A stretch of 64,000 nucleotides of DNA from Planctomycetota bacterium (GCA_044225365.1 JBGAIQ010000021.1:33833-97832), one strand, 5' to 3'. Positions 5,627 to 64,000 are shown, counted from the stretch's first letter. Made by a program: numbers and translations. Notes: generated by a model from the letters alone, not told the origin.

Positions 5627-7627
5627 CTACAAGGAAAGGTCCGGAAGTCGCGTCGCACCATTGCGATCGACCCGGAGCAGCTCGATCCTATCACCGCGTA
5701 ACGACGCCACCATCAGCGTCGGAGCCGAACCGTCTTTCGACGGAACGATCGCGAGCGATGGTCCCGGGCGGCGCGCTTCCACGTGCGGCGCACCGAGCGG
5801 GAAGAGGAAGCGCGGTGAGTCGCTCCCGTCGATGACGAATGCGGGTGGTCGACAGACGAAGAGCGTCGGCGCTGACCCGTCGACCTCGAGGAATGCGAGA
5901 AGGCTCGACGTGGCGGGGATGCCGAACTCGAGTTCGCGATCGAGCGCGAACTTCCCATTGCCCAACAATCGGAAAGCGGTGGGTCGGTTCGACGCCGCGC
6001 CCGTCACGAGAAGATGCTCGACGCCACTCGATTTCGACCGCGCGACGCCGATCGGCCGTCCCGGGTCGAGCGGCAGAGCGAGCCGAGCGAGCAAGGACGC
6101 GCGGTCGTCGAGGAGCAGGCAGTACGGAGCGGTGAGCGGCCCGAAGTCGACGAGGTACTCCGGCCGACCGTCGCCGCGAAGATCGACGGGGGTCACGCGG
6201 AACCACTCGAACGTCGCGGGCAGGTCGAGCTGCTGGCGTGGCAAGGTGCCCGCCGTGCCGTCGAGCTTCGCGGAGGCGACGACGAACTCGCCCTTCGTCG
6301 TCCGACCGCAGACCAGGATCTCGTCCTGGAAGATCGGGAGCGCGGAGACTTGGAGCGGTCGATCGGGCGGATCGAGCGTGCTCTCGATCGTCGACCAGTC
6401 GCCGCGACCAGGATCGAGGACTCCGAGCAGCACCTTTCCCTCCGCGACGCAGGCGACGATGAGATCGTCGCTCGTACTCCCGGCGCGCCTCAGCGGCGCG
6501 ATCGCGGGGAGCGAGATCGTCGAGGGCTGCGCTGCATTCGTGGGAAGGAGGACCGAGTCGGGCAGCGCTTTCGTGGCCATGAGGCCGTTGCGGAGTTCGA
6601 TGGCGAAGCGGTGGAGTCCGATGGGATTGAGGTGGATCGAATCGGGCCCGGGAAGTGGATTCGAATACAGCTCGACCGGATTGTCGTTCGCGAGTGCCGC
6701 TCTCAGATCGACGCACGCAATCGAATCCCTAGCGCAGCGATCGACGATCGCGCGGGCCTGTTGATCGAGCCTTCGCGCTTGCTCGAGGATGTAGCCGTCT
6801 CGCGATCGATCGACTTTGGCGAGCGAGCCCTCGCGGAATCCATTCGGCTGGGTGATCGCGACGAACTTGCTTCCACGGCGCTCGCAGAGCTCGGCAGCGC
6901 GAAAGACGATGTCGGCGTACGCATCGGCACTCACGCGTTCGGGTACCGCCGAGGCGGAGAAGCCGAGGAACGAACGCCGCTTTCCCACGATCCAGCGCTC
7001 GACGAACCGTCCGAGGCGGAATCGACACGCTTCGAAGTGCAGCTTGCCGAGGAGAGTGGATCGGGCGTTCGCGATCTGTTCGTCCGTTGGGCCGTTCCCG
7101 AGCGCATCCTTCGCGTTGTTGTAGCCGAAGCAGAACGTGACGAGGTCCGGCGAGTAGGCGATCAACTCACGTTCGAGGAAGGCGAGCCCTTGGACTGCGG
7201 AGAAACCCGGGACGCCCGCATTCATGATCTCGACGCGCTTGCCGTCGATTCGACTCGGGAGGACCGAACGCAGTTCGTCCGGGTACGACGTGAAGTTGCC
7301 AAAAGCCGTCGAGTCGCCGACGCAGATGATTCGATATACGTCCTTCGGCTTGTCGCGCGCGGGGAGATCGCCTCGCAGGCCGAGTTCGTTCGTGGTGAAC
7401 GAGAGTCCATTGAGATCGAAGTGCTGGTTCGGCGCGAGCCGCCAGAACAACTCGCGGTCTTCGATCGTCGCATTGCGCATCGGATCGGACTTGCCGAAGC
7501 TGAGCTGGAGTGGCCCCGACCCGTCGAAGTCGAGCCGATACAGGGCGAACTCCGCGCTGCAAAGCAGGAGCAGGGGCGTCGCCACGGCGATCGCGAGTTT
7601 CGATCCGAGGTTGTGCGGTAGTCTCAT
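5627..7627 (-). CDS. Membrane-anchored SGNH/GDSL hydrolase with a C-terminal beta-rich (FG-GAP-like) region
   Basis: GDSTAFG, NAGVPG, GYNN and DSIH SGNH blocks. N-terminal TM segment. DLRGDGRPEYLV in the C-terminal part. Confidence 0.8.
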   Translation of the reverse strand: MRLPHNLGSKLAIAVATPLLLLCSAEFALYRLDFDGSGPLQLSFGKSDPMRNATIEDRELFWRLAPNQHFDLNGLSFTTNELGLRGDLPARDKPKDVYRIICVGDSTAFGNFTSYPDELRSVLPSRIDGKRVEIMNAGVPGFSAVQGLAFLERELIAYSPDLVTFCFGYNNAKDALGNGPTDEQIANARSTLLGKLHFEACRFRLGRFVERWIVGKRRSFLGFSASAVPERVSADAYADIVFRAAELCERRGSKFVAITQPNGFREGSLAKVDRSRDGYILEQARRLDQQARAIVDRCARDSIACVDLRAALANDNPVELYSNPLPGPDSIHLNPIGLHRFAIELRNGLMATKALPDSVLLPTNAAQPSTISLPAIAPLRRAGSTSDDLIVACVAEGKVLLGVLDPGRGDWSTIESTLDPPDRPLQVSALPIFQDEILVCGRTTKGEFVVASAKLDGTAGTLPRQQLDLPATFEWFRVTPVDLRGDGRPEYLVDFGPLTAPYCLLLDDRASLLARLALPLDPGRPIGVARSKSSGVEHLLVTGAASNRPTAFRLLGNGKFALDRELEFGIPATSSLLAFLEVDGSAPTLFVCRPPAFVIDGSDSPRFLFPLGAPHVEARRPGPSLAIVPSKDGSAPTLMVASLRGDRIELLRVDRNGATRLPDLSL

Positions 7628-54495: not shown

Positions 54496-54741
54496 GCGAG
54501 TTTCGTCGTAAGTGTTCGGGCCGCGGGAACGAATCCTCTCCCCCGGCGTTTCCGATCGAGTTGGCTTGGAACTTTGGTCTCGCTCGGAAGCTTTCTGAAT
54601 CGTATTCGGGCGGGGGCATCCGCGATTTTCCGGCGGGCCTTTGAATCGTACGTAGAGTTCAGCTTCGATGGACTCTCACGAGCGGGATCGCGTCGCTCCG
54701 CGTCCCGCTCGATTGCACGAAGACATCTCGGAGGAGTCCGC

Positions 54742-56896
54742 ATGTTGGTTCATCATCGTCCCTGGTCCTTCCGGATCGTCGCGCTGTCGGCGATCGTCGC
54801 GAGCGCGAATTCCGCCCTCGCCGGCGATCGCACCCTCGCCGAGATCGTGTCGAAGGACTCGACGCTCTGCGCGACGATCGACGTCGAACGCGCGGCGAAG
54901 CAGTGGGAGACGCTCGCACTCATTCGGCTGTGGCGCGATCCCGAGGTGCAGGCCTTCGTCGAGCCGCTGCTGAAGCAGAGCGATGCTTCGCCCGATCTCA
55001 AGAAGATCGAGGGGTTGAAGTTCTTCGCGGAGCAGTACGGTCTCCCGCAGATCATCGACGGCAAGGTCGAGATCGCGATCGTCGGCTACGCGATGCACAA
55101 GGACGGCGGCGGGATCTCGTGGTGCGACGCGGCGACGGCCTTCAGCGCGCCTCCGGCGGCGACGCCGGGTCCTGCGTTCATTCCGGAACTCGCGCTGCTC
55201 ATCGATACCGCGGGGCAGGAGTCGTTCGGCGCGAGCCTCGAGCGCATGCTCGAGATCGATCCGTCGATCGAAGTGACCGAGGGTGAAGCGGACGGCGTGC
55301 CCTATCACGTCGCGAAGATCCCGACCGAGACGACGAATCTCGCCGATCCGCTCGAGTTCTACTTCACGTTCGTGAACGACAAGTTCCTCGTCGCGATGCG
55401 TGAATCGCGCCTCGTCGAGCTCGTGAAGGGTCTGCGCGCGGAGGCGGCGCCCGCGGAATCGCTCGGGACCGACAAGTCGTATCAGCGCTGGGCGAAGGCG
55501 TGCTTGCGCGGCGGCGAGTTGATCTCGGCCTACGTCGGTCTCAAGACTCTGATGCCGACCATCGTCGCTCAGGACAAGAGCAAGAGCGGCCTCGACAAGG
55601 CGCAGAAGTCCAACCTCGAAGCGCTCGGTTTCGATCGTGCCGAGGGTGCGGGCATGCGGATCGGACTCGAGAACGGTCGTATCTCCGACAGTTACTCGAT
55701 CATCGTTCCCGAACAGCGAACGGGACTGCTTCGCATCCTCGATGCGCTGCAGCCCGGGTCGGCGATCGTCGACAACGTGAAGGGCAACTCGGCGGCGCAC
55801 TTCGAAGTGCGAGTCGATCCGGCCATGGTCGTGAACGTAGCGCTCGACGCGCTGAAGGACATGGACCCGTCCGCGCACGAAGACGCGGAGAAGGGCTTCG
55901 CCGAGATGTCCGAACAGCTCGGCTTCGATCTGCGCGGCGAACTGATCGCGAGTCTCGGCGCGGATCTCATGATCTCGGCGTCGCTGCCGAAGTCCGGCTT
56001 CATCCCAGACGTCGTGGGTTCGATGGAGTTGCGCGATGTCGCGAAGTTCCAGACGATCCTTCCGAAGCTCAAGGAAGCGGCGACGAAGAGTTCGGGCGGA
56101 ACTGCGACCTTCCAGGACATCGTCCTCAAGGAAGGCGATCCAGGTTTCTACCTGAAGAGTAACGACATGCTCTCCGTCGCGCCGTCGTTTGCGGTGCGCA
56201 ACGGCAAGCTGTTGTTCTCGCTGTCGACCTCCGGCCTCAAGAAGCTCGTCGCCGCGATGAGCAAGGAGCCCGCGCCCGACGCTTCCCCCAACGCGGATCT
56301 CAAGGCCTGCCTTGCGACGACCGTCGGCAGGGATCGAGTTCGGCCTGGGCACGGCCCAGATGTTCCTGCCCGCGGTGTTCGCGCAGTCGCCCGTTCCGCT
56401 CGACGCCAACAAGTTCCCCTCGCCCGAGACGATCGGCTCGTACTTCTCCGGTTTCTTGCTGACCCTTCGGTTCTCCGACGGCGTGGTGTCGTTCGACGGC
56501 TCGTCGCCGATCGGTGGCGCCACTCTTCCGGTCTTCGGCATCGCCGGCGGGATCATGGCGAATCAGAGGAAGCTGATTCAGCGCGGCGAACTGAAAGCGG
56601 AACAGCAGGCGGTGGTCGATCCCGATCAGCCCTACGTCGGTGTGCAGAGCGACACGTCGAGCGGTGGCGTCAAGATCACGGGAATCATCGCGAACTCGCC
56701 GGCTCAAGAAGCCGGTCTGATGGTCGGCGACAAGATCATCTCGATCGATGGTGAAACCGTCACGACGCCTTCGGACATGCAGCGCATCGTCAAGTCGAAG
56801 AAGCCGGGCAAAGAGGTGCGCTACAAGGTCGAGCGCGAAGACGCGTTCGAGACCGTGGTGGTGACGATCGGTCGGCGCGGCGACTACATCCGCTGA
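54742..56896 (+). pseudogene. Exported protein (DUF3352-like) with a C-terminal PDZ domain, frameshifted near 56320-56335
   Basis: RBS ggaggag and signal peptide. Frame 1 is protein-like up to ...CLATTVG. Frame 2 continues GIEFGLG... into PDZ (PYVGV, NSPAQEAGL..GDKIISIDG). Confidence 0.7.
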
Positions 56897-56981: not shown

Positions 56982-58856
<1,875 letters not shown>

Positions 58857-58857
58857 C

Positions 58858-60774
58858 ATGGGCGTTGCGGAGATCCTCTGCACCTGCGGCCATCGGTTCC
58901 CCGTCGCCGACGATGGGAACGGGACGCCTCATCCGTGTCCGAAGTGCAAGGTGCAGAACGTCCTTCCTCGGCAACGCCGCGCCGGCGATCGCTCGATCAC
59001 CTTGCAATCGCCGGGCGAAACGGGAGTGCGAACGACGGCGGTCCTGTCGCCGATCGCCGCCGCGCACCAGAGCGTGATCCAGGGTCTGCCCGCAGGCACG
59101 ATGGTCGGGCCCTATCGAACCGTACGGCGAGTGGGTCGCGGCGGAATGGGCTCGGTCTACGAAGCGATCGACGAGCGCTCGCAACAGCGCGTCGCGCTCA
59201 AGGTGCTCTCGGCGGAGTTGTCCGCCCAACCCGATTTCGTCGCGCGCTTCCATCGAGAATCGCGTGCGTTGTCGTCGTTCACCGACGAGCGGATCGCGAG
59301 CGTGTTCTTCAGCGGCGCCGCAGAAGGCATCCCGTTCTTCGCGATGGAGTTCGTCGATGGGAAGAACCTCGAAGAGATCCTGAACGAGCGCGGACCTTTG
59401 CGTCCCGATCAGGCGATCGCATGGATGCGGGAGATCGCGCTCGGACTCGAGGTCGCCGCCGAGCACGGGCTCATCCACCGCGACGTGAAGCCCACGAACA
59501 TTCTCATCGACCTCTCCGGTCGCGTGCGCATCGTGGACTTTGGCCTCGCGAAGGCGCTCGATTCGGACACCCGACTCACCGTGACGGGCGCTGTGGTGGG
59601 TACACCGTTCTACCTCTCACCCGAGCAGGGCCTCAGCAAGCCGGTCGATCAGCGTTCCGACATCTACTCTCTCGGCGCGACCTTCTACCACCTGCTCACG
59701 GGCAGCCCGCCGTTCGAGGCCGAGAACTCGGTCTCCATCATCCTGAAGCACGTGCACGATTCGCCGACGCCGATCAAGGATCGCAATTCGGCCGTTCCCG
59801 AACCGCTCGCCCGCATCGTCATGCGCTGTCTCAGCAAGGAACCGCGCCATCGTTATCAGGACTACGACGAGCTGATCCGCGATCTCGATGCCGCCAAGGC
59901 GGGCGAGCCCGTCGCCGCGCCGCGCGAGAGCGCGACGATTCGGCGCGCGCCGTCGTATGTCGTGATGGACGACCTCGCCGATGGGTCGTACGTCCTCCGC
60001 TACGCCACGCGGATCCGCCGCGCGCTCGCGCTCGCGTTCGATCTCGTCCTCGTCGTCGGTGTCGCGAAGTGGATGCCGCAGACCGAACTGCTCGGAGCGT
60101 TCGCGCTCCTCTTCGCCATCGGGTACTTCGCGCTCGGCGATGGCATGGGCGGTCGCACGCTGGGGAAGCAGTTCTTCCGCCTGCGCGTCGGAAGACCAGA
60201 CGGCGGACAGCCAGGGTTCGGGCGCACGTTCCTGCGCGGCATCCTCCTCGTCCCTCTCGTCCTCGCGCCGATCCTCTACACGAAGAACTTCGTCGTGTTC
60301 GCCGAGACGAGCCGCCTCATCGAGCACTACGGGCTGCTGCCGCCCGCGGTCCTGCATCGCATCACGGAGTCGGGACTCCTCGAAGTCGCGACCAAAGCGA
60401 TCTACGCGTTCGTCGCGATCGATCTCGGCGCCTGCATCTTCACGGCGAAGCACGCGACGATGCACGACCTGCTCTCCGGAACGTTCGTCTTCTCCGAGCA
60501 GGTCGTGAAGCGCAGCAAGAAGAAGAAGCGCGAGAAGCAGAAGCTCACGCGCCCGCTCTCTCCGAAGGTGCCGCTCGTGCTCGCGATCGTGCCGGGGCTC
60601 GGTCAACTCGCGAACGGAGAGATGGGAAAGGCGCTCGTGTTCTTCATCGCGATGTGCGTCGCGAGCGGCAATCCGCCCGGGATCATCGCGGTCTGGATCC
60701 TCAGCGCCGTCGAGGCCTATCGCACCGCAAAGGTGCGCCGCTCGCAGTGGGAGCAGTCGCAGATCCGCGCCTGA
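58858..60774 (+). CDS. Membrane Hanks-type Ser/Thr kinase (Zn ribbon, kinase, RDD, TM2-like tail)
   Basis: CTCG..CPKC, GRGGMG, VALK, HRDVKPTN, DFG and GTPFYLSPEQ. RDD motifs RRALALAFD, GRTLGK and HDLLSGT. Tail VPGLGQLANG. Confidence 0.92.
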   Translation: MGVAEILCTCGHRFPVADDGNGTPHPCPKCKVQNVLPRQRRAGDRSITLQSPGETGVRTTAVLSPIAAAHQSVIQGLPAGTMVGPYRTVRRVGRGGMGSVYEAIDERSQQRVALKVLSAELSAQPDFVARFHRESRALSSFTDERIASVFFSGAAEGIPFFAMEFVDGKNLEEILNERGPLRPDQAIAWMREIALGLEVAAEHGLIHRDVKPTNILIDLSGRVRIVDFGLAKALDSDTRLTVTGAVVGTPFYLSPEQGLSKPVDQRSDIYSLGATFYHLLTGSPPFEAENSVSIILKHVHDSPTPIKDRNSAVPEPLARIVMRCLSKEPRHRYQDYDELIRDLDAAKAGEPVAAPRESATIRRAPSYVVMDDLADGSYVLRYATRIRRALALAFDLVLVVGVAKWMPQTELLGAFALLFAIGYFALGDGMGGRTLGKQFFRLRVGRPDGGQPGFGRTFLRGILLVPLVLAPILYTKNFVVFAETSRLIEHYGLLPPAVLHRITESGLLEVATKAIYAFVAIDLGACIFTAKHATMHDLLSGTFVFSEQVVKRSKKKKREKQKLTRPLSPKVPLVLAIVPGLGQLANGEMGKALVFFIAMCVASGNPPGIIAVWILSAVEAYRTAKVRRSQWEQSQIRA

Positions 60775-60781
60775 CCGCGGG

Positions 60782-60819
60782 CGTTCGTGTTCCGAACACG
60801 TGATTCCGGATTGCGAACA
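60782..60819 (+). promoter_or_regulatory. Putative tandem upstream activator sequence for a sigma54 bEBP
   Basis: cgttcg-N5-cgaaca and attccg-N5-cgaaca, 21 bp apart, about 95-130 bp upstream of the -24 box. Confidence 0.5.
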
Positions 60820-60910
60820 GCCCACCCGTGACGCCGGTTCGCCCGGCTGCGTCGACCCAAGCGACGATCGAATCCTGCATTACGGCGACACGAAGGGGGA
60901 GTGAGCGAAT

Positions 60911-60926
60911 CGGTACGGCGCATGCA
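60911..60926 (+). promoter_or_regulatory. Sigma54 (-24/-12) promoter
   Basis: cGGtacggcgcatGCa: GG-N10-GC, close to the TGGCACG-N4-TTGCA consensus. About 30 bp before the ATG at 60958. Confidence 0.7.
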
Positions 60927-60957
60927 TTGAGGAGCCCGTCACCAAACGGAGCCCTCG

Positions 60958-61587
60958 ATGGACCTCGCCTGTACCCAGCACGTAGATCAACCCGCACGCG
61001 CGCGCTGCGTCGAGTGCGGCAACCTGCTGTGCGAGACGTGTCGCGCGAAGATCGGCGGTCGCAACTTCTGCCGGCCGTGTCTTCCGGCGAAGCTGAAGCG
61101 TCGCCTCCCGGGTCGCCGCTCACCTGTCTTCGCGACGATGCTCTCCGTCGTGCCGGGCCTCGGTCAGATGTTCGTCGGTGAGAAGTTGCGCGGCCTCGTG
61201 TTCGGTGCGTCGGCGATCGCGCTCTCGAACGTCCACCCCGCGCCCTCCGCGACGATCGCCCTCTTCCTCTACGTCTACAACCTCTTCGACGCGTGGTCGC
61301 TCGCAACCGAGCGCAACGCACGAGTTGCGGGGGAAACGCTCTCCGCATCGGATCGCCGCCAGCGCTTCATGTTCTCGGCCTTTGCGATGGTGACCGCGAT
61401 CTTCGCGATCGCTCGCGAGTCCATCGCTCCGGATCTCCGAGTCGACGTGCTCTGGCCCACGGCCCTCGGCCTCGTCGTTCTTCACCACCTCATGGACCGC
61501 AAAGAGGACCGCAAAGATCGCTACTCGAATGCGAAGGCGCCTGCGAATGATCGTGCGAAGGAGGACGCCCGTGTCGAACCAGCCTGA
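60958..61587 (+). CDS. B-box zinc-finger membrane protein with a TM2-like motif
   Basis: CTQH..ARCVECGNLLCETC...FCRPC and LSVVPGLGQMFVG. Several TM segments. Confidence 0.8.
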   Translation: MDLACTQHVDQPARARCVECGNLLCETCRAKIGGRNFCRPCLPAKLKRRLPGRRSPVFATMLSVVPGLGQMFVGEKLRGLVFGASAIALSNVHPAPSATIALFLYVYNLFDAWSLATERNARVAGETLSASDRRQRFMFSAFAMVTAIFAIARESIAPDLRVDVLWPTALGLVVLHHLMDRKEDRKDRYSNAKAPANDRAKEDARVEPA

Positions 61588-61945
61588 AGCGAGCTTCTGC
61601 GGACATTGCGGTGATCGATTGCCGCCGTTCGGATCGGACCTCGGCTACTGCTCGACCTGTGCGTCTCGCTACCGCCATGTCCTTCGCACGGAATTTCGGA
61701 CGATGTCGTCGCGTATCCGGGGCTGCGAGATCCAGCGCTGGCGCGATCCAGCGATCGCAACGCTGCTCTCTTGCGTCCTGCCGGGCGCGGGTCAGCTCTA
61801 CAACGGACACTTCATCAAAGCGGTGCTGGTCTTCGTGACTTCGCCGTTCGTCATCCCCTGGCTGATCGGTATCGCCGACGCATTCTTCTCGGCGCGCCGC
61901 AACAACGAACGCATCGAATCGCCATCGGCGTTCGCGTCGGCCTGA
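61571..61945 (+). CDS. Zinc-ribbon membrane protein with a TM2-like motif
   Basis: FCGHCG...YCSTC and PAIATLLSCVLPGAGQLYNG. GTG start at 61571 after gagga. Confidence 0.78.
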   Translation: MSNQPEASFCGHCGDRLPPFGSDLGYCSTCASRYRHVLRTEFRTMSSRIRGCEIQRWRDPAIATLLSCVLPGAGQLYNGHFIKAVLVFVTSPFVIPWLIGIADAFFSARRNNERIESPSAFASA

Positions 61946-61984: not shown

Positions 61985-62875
61985 ATGTTCTCGGCTCTCA
62001 CTCGCATCGGTCTGCTCGGAACCCTCGGCGTGGGCTCGGCGGTCGCCTTCCTTGGAGGCGATCGCGTGAAGCTCTACTACGAGTCCGGTAAGGAAGCGAT
62101 CGTCTCGGCGATCGACGAAGCGCAAGGCATGGATGCCAAGCTGCGCCTCATCAAGACTCAGATCAACTCGCTGGACGACGAAGAGCGCCGTCTGAAGCGC
62201 GACGCGATCGAGAACACGGTCGAGCTCGAAGGTCTGCGTCGCGACATCGCGGCGCGCGAGGATTCGATCGAGAAGCAAGCCGCGCTCCTCGACAGGGTTT
62301 CCAAGCTGCTCGCCGACGGATCGTCGCAGTACGCGATCGCGGGTCGTACGTACGACCGCGCGGTCGTCGAGCGCGACGCGACGGAGAAGCTCGCGGTCTA
62401 CACGGTCCAGAAGGACACCCTTCAGAACCTGAAGGACACGCTCGCGACCAAGGAGAAGGCGCAGGAGATGGCTTCTGCGAACGTCTCGCGCGCCGCGGCT
62501 CTGCGGTCCGAACTGAAGGGCCAGGTCGCTCTGCTCGAGGCGCAGCTCGAGAAGCTGCGCGCGAAGCAGAACTTCGTTGCCACGGTCGACCAGGTCGTCG
62601 ACACCGACCAGATCGACTCGTCGCTCGCTCGCGCGAAGGAGATGATCCACGACTTCTCGAAGAAGCTCGAGGTCAAGGATCGTCTGCTCGACGAGCAGTT
62701 GAAGGGTGCGAACTCGCAGCCTTCTCTCGGCATCAGCTACGACGCCACGACGGCGAGCGCGAATGACGTCGCGGCGCAGATCCGCGTCAAGCTCTCCGAG
62801 CGCAGCTCCAAGGGCGATGTCGCCAAGGCCGATCCTGCGCACGGCGTCTCCAGCGTCGACATCACGGTTCACTGA
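61985..62875 (+). CDS. PspA/IM30-like long coiled-coil protein with an N-terminal hydrophobic anchor
   Basis: RBS aggag. All-helical heptad pattern with a short central hairpin insert (QYAIAGRTY). C-terminal DVAAQIR helix. The PspA relationship is an inference. Confidence 0.6.
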   Translation: MFSALTRIGLLGTLGVGSAVAFLGGDRVKLYYESGKEAIVSAIDEAQGMDAKLRLIKTQINSLDDEERRLKRDAIENTVELEGLRRDIAAREDSIEKQAALLDRVSKLLADGSSQYAIAGRTYDRAVVERDATEKLAVYTVQKDTLQNLKDTLATKEKAQEMASANVSRAAALRSELKGQVALLEAQLEKLRAKQNFVATVDQVVDTDQIDSSLARAKEMIHDFSKKLEVKDRLLDEQLKGANSQPSLGISYDATTASANDVAAQIRVKLSERSSKGDVAKADPAHGVSSVDITVH

Positions 62876-62950: not shown

Positions 62951-63523
62951 ATGCGTACGTCGACCGTAGCCTTTCTCGTGCTCTTCCTCTGCCTCGCGTC
63001 GTCGCGCGAGCATCGAGGCGTGATCCGCGAAGTCGCGGGTTTCGTGAAGAACGGAGTCTCCTCGATCGCTCACGAAGTCCACGATGCGATCCACGATCGC
63101 GGCCATCGCGATGCGACCGCATCGCGCGAGCAGGAACTGCGCGATCGACTCGCCGAAATCGACGACGAGTACGGCGCCGCCGGGCGCACTCTGCGTGCCG
63201 TCGATCGCAGCATCCGGCAGTTGAAGGATCGACTGAACGAGGTCGCGAGCGAGTCGAATCGTTCCTACTCCAACCGCGCCGCGGGCGATAGCGTCGAGCG
63301 CCTCGCGCAGAAGGTGCAGGATCTCGAAACCGAACGCGATCGTCTCGTCGAGCTTCAGGTCTCGCTCAAGAACGAACGCGTCGAGGTCCAGTCCTCGCTC
63401 GATCTCGAAGGTGTGCGCTGCGAACGCTCGCGCCTCGAGTCGGTGATCGGGCGACCCGCCCGCGCGCAGGAGCCGTCGCCGATCGATCGCATGGCGGCGC
63501 AACCGATGTGGATGAACCACTGA
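62951..63523 (+). CDS. Coiled-coil protein with an N-terminal hydrophobic segment
   Basis: RBS gagga, VAFLVLFLCLA and a heptad-rich helical hairpin. Confidence 0.7.
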   Translation: MRTSTVAFLVLFLCLASSREHRGVIREVAGFVKNGVSSIAHEVHDAIHDRGHRDATASREQELRDRLAEIDDEYGAAGRTLRAVDRSIRQLKDRLNEVASESNRSYSNRAAGDSVERLAQKVQDLETERDRLVELQVSLKNERVEVQSSLDLEGVRCERSRLESVIGRPARAQEPSPIDRMAAQPMWMNH

Positions 63524-63625: not shown

Positions 63626-64000
63626 ATGCGACAAGTGATCGAGACCGCGTTCGGATGCATCGTGGCGGCGTTCTACGCCGCGACCTTCTTCTTTGGCCGA
63701 TTCACCGCGCGCACCCAGCGAATCCTGATCGCACTCCTCACGATCCTCGGCGTCGCATCGTGCCTCGTGGCGCTGCGCGCGGAGGGAGATCGCACGGCCG
63801 AGATCCGGTCGCTGTTGTATCGGCATCACTACGTCGTCGCGCACTCGACGGCGCCGGCGAATCTCCTGCCGCTGCTCGTCGGTGCGGCGCTCTTCGTCGC
63901 GGCTGCGGCCGGGCTCTTCTCGCGAAGTACGACCCAAGGAGCGCGTCCGCTCGGCTTCGTCTTCGGGCTCGCCGCTCTCATGACGGTACTGCGGTTCGGA
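63626..64000 (+). CDS. Membrane protein, 3'-truncated by the window edge
   Basis: Open frame MRQVIETAFGCIVAAFYAATFFFG... with several hydrophobic segments. Not in the ORF track because there is no stop codon in the window. Confidence 0.6.
   Translation, partial: MRQVIETAFGCIVAAFYAATFFFGRFTARTQRILIALLTILGVASCLVALRAEGDRTAEIRSLLYRHHYVVAHSTAPANLLPLLVGAALFVAAAAGLFSRSTTQGARPLGFVFGLAALMTVLRFG

Follow-up and report, generated by a model that had tools for sequence, protein, structure and literature searches.

We analysed a window of 64,000 nucleotides (nt) from Planctomycetota bacterium (GCA_044225365.1, JBGAIQ010000021.1:33833-97832); the window is this whole stretch of DNA, and positions are counted from its first letter. 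At its end lie six tightly spaced genes on the + strand. Three consecutive members of this cluster, encoding a Hanks-type Ser/Thr kinase, a B-box zinc-finger membrane protein (B) and a zinc-ribbon membrane protein (Z), each carry a similar membrane hairpin, referred to below as the module, and every copy of it stands C-terminal to a zinc finger that is probably cytoplasmic. The genes and features of the cluster, with protein lengths in amino acids (aa), are as follows.

56982..58856, + strand: sigma-54 enhancer-binding activator with FHA, GAF, AAA+ (GAFTGA loop) and Fis-type helix-turn-helix domains (Pfam)
58858..60774, + strand: Hanks-type Ser/Thr kinase with a zinc ribbon (CxC...CxxC), kinase domain, RDD domain, basic linker and C-terminal hairpin
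59035..59046, + strand: T60-A-V-L63 in the linker between the zinc ribbon and the kinase domain, a putative phospho-threonine docking site for the FHA domain
60553..60732, + strand: hairpin module of the kinase tail, residues ~566-625, LSPKVPLVLAIVPGLGQLANGEMGKALVF...WILSAVEAY
60783..60797, + strand: inverted repeat GTTCG-N5-CGAAC, candidate enhancer/activator site, 129 nt 5' of the -24 element
60912..60926, + strand: sigma-54-type promoter GGTACG-N5-TGCA (-24 GG/-12 GC), 32 nt 5' of the start codon of the B-box gene
60958..61587, + strand: B, 209 aa, with the B-box at residues 5-41, the module at residues 52-120 (61111-61317) and a second hydrophobic helix pair
61571..61945, + strand: Z, 124 aa from the GTG at 61571, with the zinc ribbon at residues 10-30 and the module at residues 57-112 (61739-61906)
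61985..62875, + strand: 296-aa protein with an N-terminal hydrophobic helix, a long antiparallel coiled-coil hairpin and a beta-hairpin tip
62951..63523, + strand: 190-aa protein with a strongly conserved N-terminal hydrophobic helix (MRTSTxxFLVLFLCL) followed by a coiled coil

The kinase gene begins 1 nt after the stop codon of the activator gene, a 183-nt gap separates it from the B-box gene, and the start of the Z gene overlaps the end of the B-box gene by 17 nt. For Z, the GTG at 61571, which lies behind an AAGGAGG sequence, is most likely the start codon, and the 124-aa form was adopted because of this AAGGAGG-GTG arrangement and because the orthologues are 119-138 aa long; these also retain the N-terminal CxxC...CxxC. 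An entry in the protein collection (P0122) corresponds to the same protein (100% identity over 65% of the query) in an 80-aa form that begins after the zinc ribbon.

Three consecutive proteins share a membrane hairpin module

A common membrane segment in three consecutive proteins had been proposed in a first-pass annotation of this DNA, and all three peptides that it quoted were located in + strand open reading frames (ORFs). Pairwise local alignments of the three modules gave scores of 62-69, compared with 22-23 ± 4 for composition-preserving shuffles (z 9.5-10.5). For every pair the observed score was matched by 0/1000 shuffles, and a chance likeness of the three segments was ruled out on this basis. 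In the source genome (6.53 Mb searched, 94% complete) a regular expression for the motif matched 5 of 65,876 stop-to-stop ORFs; three of these are the proteins described here, and the remaining two matches sit in non-hydrophobic contexts. A profile of the module gave exactly three matches in the same genome, all of them from this cluster, to which the genomic Pfam matches to DUF5683 were also confined.

To describe the module, 27 copies were aligned, taken from the kinase, B and Z of nine loci. The domain consists of two kinked hydrophobic spans; its turn region reads PGxG(Q)xxxG and its end (D/E)AxxxA. The pattern starts with a short hydrophobic helix followed by P-G-x-G-(Q), three residues, a G and a basic residue with G/A, and it ends with a second hydrophobic span that contains a proline break and leads into W...(D/E)-A-x-x-x-A and further basic residues. 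G16 and G18 were invariant in the 27 modules, and P15, G23, A48 and A52 were present in at least 90% of them.

The segment had initially been compared with TM2/DUF5683-type domains, and this comparison held up: at E ≤ 0.1, DUF5683 was matched by 22 of the 27 modules, DUF6677 by 20 and TM2 by 9. The clearest assignment was obtained for Z, which scored 27.3 bits against DUF5683 (PF18935) as a whole protein and 29.4 bits as the module alone (gathering cut-off 26.7), the match spanning positions 3-35 of 151. Weaker Pfam matches of Z were to a zinc ribbon, to DUF6677 (PF20382; 19.1-21.3 bits, the gathering cut-off of 24.3 not being reached) and to TM2 (PF05154; 16.1-18.3 bits over positions 5-50 of 51, under the cut-off of 27.9). 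The best TM2 score among the relatives, 24.0 bits for the Z of locus L031, was still below the same value, although the likeness to TM2 is real. DUF5683 on the kinase tail reached 13.8 bits (E 0.06, under the cut-off), the whole B protein gave no match to DUF5683 at E ≤ 1, and both the kinase tail and the module in full-length B stayed under every curated cut-off, so that Z alone is formally a member of DUF5683. Matches to Z in the ESM Atlas all scored < 0.9 and serve as leads only.

In a tree of the 27 modules the B copies clustered together (support 91/84), as did the Z copies (88/92), and the copies from the kinases lay on long branches with no resolved placement. Because the B and Z modules group separately, the three copies are old paralogues and not recent duplicates. 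The alignments and profiles show that the three segments are paralogues of each other, all representing a single membrane hairpin domain (~60 residues) of the DUF5683/DUF6677/TM2 group.

Zinc modules, kinase domain and membrane tail

The earlier suggestion that each of the three proteins begins with a zinc module was borne out by residue conservation. At least 90% of 26 kinase sequences have C8, C10, C27 and C30; in B, the residues C5, H8, C17, C20, C25, C28, C38 and C41 were invariant in 21 sequences; and in Z, C10 and C13 were invariant, with C27 and C30 present in at least 90% of 20 sequences. The B-box of the window protein scored 22.2 bits against zf-B_box (PF00643), under the cut-off of 24.1, and the orthologue in locus L024 scored 27.0 bits. 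The module residues P66, G67, L68, G69, Q70, D111 and A112 were likewise invariant in the 21 B sequences. Word-based protein searches with Z and B returned close relatives only (27 and 24 matches, respectively).

The kinase matched Pkinase at 160.3 bits and, over residues 411-540, RDD at 31.5 bits (PF06271, cut-off 24.1). K115, H207-R208-D209, D227-F228-G229 and T241/T243 were invariant in 26 kinase homologues, and the catalytic lysine, HRD, DFG and activation-loop threonine of a Hanks-type kinase are thus all present. The C-terminal tail was retained in all 26 full-length homologues, down to 36% identity, with P569, G582, Q583 and A620 invariant. An AlphaFold2 (AF2) model of the kinase had a mean predicted local distance difference test score (pLDDT) of 82.8, rising to ~94 over residues 570-637, and placed helices in the tail at residues 570-575, 581-585, 589-602 and 606-637. 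Basic residues flank the module, with nine K/R in the linker before it and four just after it, and four long hydrophobic helices of the RDD domain precede it; on account of these flanking charges and preceding helices, the favoured arrangement has the two ends of the hairpin on the cytoplasmic side.

FHA domains prefer pT-x-x-I/L/V, and a T-x-x-[LIV] sequence was found in the linker of 23/26 kinase homologues, compared with 13% of random 17-residue windows drawn from the same proteins. The T-x-V-L sequence in the linker of the window kinase fits this preference and is a candidate site at which the activator's FHA domain could dock on phospho-threonine.

Activator, promoter and inverted repeats

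The activator matched Sigma54_activat (242.7 bits), GAF_2 (41.0 bits) and HTH_8 (57.2 bits), and its translation contains the GAFTGA loop that marks a sigma-54 enhancer-binding protein. Its FHA domain (residues 26-88) scored 68.4 bits against a cut-off of 20.7, and an FHA domain was also present in the three orthologues scanned. The genome encodes RpoN, as judged from its DNA-binding domain (E 5e-59, contig C51).

The window contained no match to the strict sigma-54 pattern TGGYAYR-N5-TGCW, and a relaxed -24/-12 pattern matched once in the 64 kb, at 60912-60926. Among related loci, GG[CT]A[CT]G-N5-TG[CAT] was found 58-88 nt 5' of the first cysteine codon of the B-box in 11/11 cases, against a background of 21 matches over 358,946 nt in all, the expectation per 200 nt being 0.012; the loci counted are also those from which the pattern was built. 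This pattern is in line with the textbook sigma-54 element, TGGCACG-N4-TTGC. A scan for sigma-70 promoters gave 0 sites, and a terminator-like hairpin at the kinase stop codon (60764-60781) carries no weight, being among 4 such hairpins detected where 4.2 were expected.

Upstream of the -24 element, at a distance of 106-129 nt, a regular expression located inverted repeats of the GTTCG-N5-CGAAC type in 5/7 loci of the same family, and inspection by eye showed a variant of the repeat in the two that remained. In a sister family a different palindrome, CGTCAG-N5-CTGACG, lay 138-149 nt 5' of the -24 element in 3/4 loci. At locus L028 the kinase and B-box genes are separated by two further genes, and here the palindrome and promoter are found in front of B and not behind the kinase.

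The first-pass annotation had treated the small membrane proteins as induced, a view strengthened by the sigma-54 element in all 11 loci, the palindromes 106-149 nt upstream of it and the adjoining FHA-GAF activator; with these elements in place, B and Z are very probably induced. The cluster comprises two transcription units, one with the activator and kinase genes, the other a sigma-54 operon with the genes for B, Z and the two coiled-coil proteins.

Two side observations concern these intergenic regions. The palindrome of the sister family (kinase stop region of L031, L032, L033 and L016) overlaps the last codons of the kinase gene, and CGTCAG-N5-CTGACG coincides there with the conserved C-terminal peptide IRRQE[STN] of the kinase. 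The genes inserted in L028 (5796-9018, - strand) encode an FG-GAP repeat protein and a di-haem peroxidase-like protein, and FG-GAP repeat proteins of ~500-560 aa occur near the cluster in L024, L027 and L028.

Conservation of the cluster

The distribution of the cluster was determined in 401 genomes sampled from the phylum, using the C-terminal half of the kinase as query (E ≤ 1e-5). It was matched in 17 of the 401, the source genome included: all seven same-family genomes and all four sister-family genomes were positive, and five further genomes gave weak matches to part of the RDD domain only. The order kinase, B, Z was found in 9/11 loci, the two others being interrupted by contig ends; in genome G247 a separate contig carries the end of the tail, B and Z in order, and in G215 Z is on a separate short contig. 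When the six proteins of the window were used in tblastn searches, the activator was found 5' of the kinase in 9/9 loci that reached far enough, and the 296-aa protein was found 3' of Z, again in 9/9 loci reaching far enough. Orthologues of the 190-aa protein were detected by tblastn in 6/6 complete same-family loci; in the sister family, likely orthologues were recognised from alignment only.

The first-pass annotation had made its proposal depend on the kinases of orthologous loci carrying the motif. In this respect the outcome was divided, in that the hairpin itself is kept on the kinases of the sister family but the Q of PGxGQ is lost from them.

Two genomes from another family encode side by side a B-box protein (with PGxGH), a zinc-ribbon protein and, by hhalign (probability 99.9%), an orthologue of the 296-aa protein, with neither the kinase nor the activator. 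As these three proteins stay together even where there is no kinase, they represent the most widely conserved core, to which the kinase and activator are an addition in two families. At one locus of this other family (L036, ~7120-7200, oriented - strand) a GAACGA run, reading NENENE in one frame, lies directly 5' of the B-box gene, and no sigma-54 element was seen upstream of that gene. Separately, several same-family genomes contain a fourth, weaker match to the module (E ~1e-6) in ORFs of 94-115 aa elsewhere in the genome (G182:C1:1053908-1054081, G350:C381:17582-17761 and G247:C164:248-391); none was found in the source genome.

Proposed mechanism and alternative explanations

We propose that the locus encodes a circuit running from the kinase through the FHA activator to the sigma-54 operon, with B and Z docking hairpin to hairpin on the kinase, a reading that as a whole we hold tentatively, its chances being somewhat below even. 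The RDD/hairpin part of the kinase would sense a signal from the membrane or envelope, leading to autophosphorylation, perhaps within the activation loop or at the T-x-V-L of the linker. Phospho-threonine would then be read by the FHA domain of the activator, and the activator would turn on the sigma-54 operon. Newly made B and Z would insert beside the kinase, where their hairpins could pack laterally on that of the kinase, like with like; the zinc fingers thus brought to the kinase might tune its activity, as feedback, or might recruit the coiled-coil proteins. Hairpin-to-hairpin association is the last step of the proposal and the least certain. Some side-by-side action of hairpins is suggested by the restriction of the module to this one cluster of the genome, by conservation of the triad and by the frequency with which other proteins carry tandem arrays. 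Among the best 150 matches to the module profile in a collection of representative proteins, 33 have two or three motifs per chain, including P0173, a zinc-ribbon protein with two tandem modules, and P0233, which is kinase-like and has a C-terminal zinc ribbon besides its two modules; such tandem arrangements give a fusion-type hint that modules associate. The stricter form of the idea, put forward in the first-pass annotation, in which the three hairpins form a single hetero-oligomeric device whose kinase hairpin docks the induced B and Z and so closes a feedback loop, seems to us on balance unlikely. Prediction of a complex of B, Z and residues 556-638 of the kinase tail gave 0.00 in two runs made without controls, and counts neither way.

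A number of observations weigh against dedicated docking, and most of them fit an explanation in which the hairpins are independent anchors: derived from one ancestor that combined a zinc finger with a hairpin, each would do no more than insert or anchor its protein in the membrane, so that the three proteins would serve one pathway without any contact between hairpins. The module is widespread: 196/401 genomes of the phylum have at least one matching ORF, usually no more than one or two, with single-copy occurrence as the rule; in 1.84 billion representative proteins its profile gave 8,520 matches at E ≤ 0.001, of which 639 reached E ≤ 1e-10. Domains were scanned in 34 of the best 150 of these matches, chosen for having several matched stretches or for their length, and 10 of the 34 were signal peptidases of family S26 with N-terminal modules; the others included TPR repeats (2), zinc ribbons (2) and a J domain (DnaJ), a DUF7544 domain and a kinase domain (1 each), and a fusion to S26 was also found at locus L037. 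The module is a general-purpose, promiscuous membrane element, one that acts as a membrane anchor in unrelated proteins. The conserved small residues (G16, G18, P15, G23, A48 and A52) would be explained equally well by packing within a hairpin. Branch lengths in the tree indicate that the kinase tail evolves faster than the modules of B or Z, its copy being the least constrained of the three, and in the sister family the Q of PGxGQ has become L or V in 4/4 kinase tails. B and Z also do not require the kinase tail, since both occur without this kinase in another family. On the side of regulation, the sigma-54 count shares its loci with the pattern that was counted. Because of the use of the module as an anchor elsewhere, the existence of B and Z without the kinase and the fact that the small residues can be explained by the module's own fold, we judge independent anchoring nearly as likely as the docking proposal. 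What it leaves unaccounted for is that the module occurs nowhere else in the source genome, that the triad is kept over two families and that tandem modules are frequent, which suggests that copies work side by side. Another explanation is that the hairpins are a shared address tag, each docking separately on the same third component; candidates for this would be the RDD bundle of the kinase, the N-terminal helices of the coiled-coil proteins, or a lipid or envelope precursor. The 296-aa protein, which follows B and Z in 9/9 loci of sufficient length and in the two kinase-less loci as well, and the RDD domain, a second membrane domain beside the hairpin of the kinase, are consistent with this, but we consider it improbable.

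A further alternative is a Psp-type system: B and Z would take the part of PspB/PspC-like sensors and release a PspF-like activator, with the 296-aa protein as an effector of the PspA/IM30 kind. The gene order is similar to that of psp, with a sigma-54 activator beside a sigma-54 operon for small membrane and coiled-coil proteins, and an envelope-stress unit is plausible here too. The first-pass annotation had spoken of a PspA-like protein and of a PspBC-like sensor complex as one possibility, and no support was obtained for either label. Neither the 296-aa nor the 190-aa protein belongs to a Pfam or NCBIfam family, and no relationship was found between the two. The AF2 model of the 296-aa protein (pLDDT 69.9) has helices at residues 25-110 and 125-204, and its beta-hairpin tip is built by a conserved Y-x-I-G...Y-x-R. 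Pfam PspA_IM30 (PF04012) gave 0 matches in the genome at E ≤ 10, in a search that was positive in 13/14 control genomes, and the 296-aa protein itself had no match to it at E ≤ 1; its family profile retrieved no PspA or Vipp1 from PDB sequences at E ≤ 10. With regard to the ESCRT-III-type fold of PspA/IM30, a Foldseek search with the model returned nothing at E ≤ 0.001, Vipp1 standing at rank 9 (E 0.022), and VIA-align placed Smc (Z score 13.2) and EnvC (12.7) above residues 1-144 of Escherichia coli PspA (10.0, rank 39), scores below ~13 being common for long helices by arrangement alone. The resemblance to PspA is thus a generic coiled-coil likeness only, and we set the PspA reading aside as unlikely. 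For B and Z there was no PspB or PspC among the Pfam matches at E ≤ 1, and no match whatever in NCBIfam. The AAA+ core of the activator is the only part of the cluster that matches a Psp family, and the activator bears FHA and GAF domains and is paired with a kinase, which is not known of PspF, so that input here would pass through the kinase and the FHA domain; unlike those of the Psp system, the coiled-coil proteins have N-terminal hydrophobic helices. We regard a Psp-type system as highly improbable.

Relation to known systems

The system can be read as a variant of signalling from a Ser/Thr kinase to an FHA activator. In the PknH-EmbR system of mycobacteria a Ser/Thr kinase is paired with an FHA-domain activator. 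FHA-type sigma-54 enhancer-binding proteins are said to have been described in Myxococcus xanthus by Jelsbak et al. in 2005, a study cited in PMC12288465. As in such pairs, the gene for a Hanks-type kinase here adjoins that for an activator with an N-terminal FHA domain, the predicted reader of phospho-threonine, and, as in Myxococcus, the activator is a sigma-54 enhancer-binding protein. It differs from them in that the kinase has a zinc ribbon, RDD domain and TM2-like hairpin, the activator has an additional GAF domain, and two proteins bearing the hairpin of the kinase are encoded in the target operon. It would add a sigma-54 circuit driven by a Ser/Thr kinase in a phylum in which signalling of this type has been little studied. 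The main text of a paper on Planctomycetota kinases (PMC11032199) does not refer to RDD, TM2 or zinc, and Planctomycetes, FHA, sigma-54 and TM2 are not treated in a PSP survey (PMC11237479).

The module resembles DUF5683/DUF6677/TM2 domains in having a helix, PG-x-G-(Q/H)-x-Y-x-G, a basic residue and a second span that ends in W...D-A, and the cluster is distinguished by three copies standing behind zinc fingers in one regulated operon unit. This hairpin is very common, being carried by about half of the sampled Planctomycetota genomes, and in the literature searched no function was found for bacterial members of the group. Should the docking proposal be true, it would supply a first mechanistic role for the group, as hairpins that recognise each other in the membrane. 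The cluster offers a compact, conserved and regulated setting in which mutual recognition of hairpins can be tested, with the kinase, the FHA-type sigma-54 activator, the defined promoter and the two small hairpin proteins as clear read-outs.

The TM2D proteins of metazoans, which are eukaryotic secretory-pathway proteins with extracellular N-termini, provide an analogy only: they too are three paralogues with a two-helix domain of TM2 type, but the kinship of the domains is distant (TM2 is below the cut-off here) and they have neither a kinase nor zinc fingers. In the fly, TM2D1, TM2D2 and TM2D3 (Almondex, Amaretto and Biscotti) are reported to act together, single and triple knock-outs being alike (PMC8714088). 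Recognition between the hairpins described here would make the cluster a bacterial counterpart of these three co-acting proteins.

In the S26 signal peptidases I with modules, one to three N-terminal copies take the place of the usual membrane anchor; the cases are L037:5314-6378 (- strand), P0182, P0189, P0190, P0197, P0200, P0218, P0242, P0245, P0268 and P0274.

Neighbouring open reading frames

At the 3' side of the cluster, an ORF encoding a polytopic membrane protein (63626-64000) runs out of the window, and it had no counterpart 3' of the cluster in the other loci examined. Just 5' of the activator gene, three other loci have ORFs of 185-195 aa without a Pfam match. At the same position the window contains a 194-aa ORF (56312-56896) with a PDZ domain (PDZ_2, E 2.9e-15), which overlaps the end of a 726-aa ORF (54574-56754).

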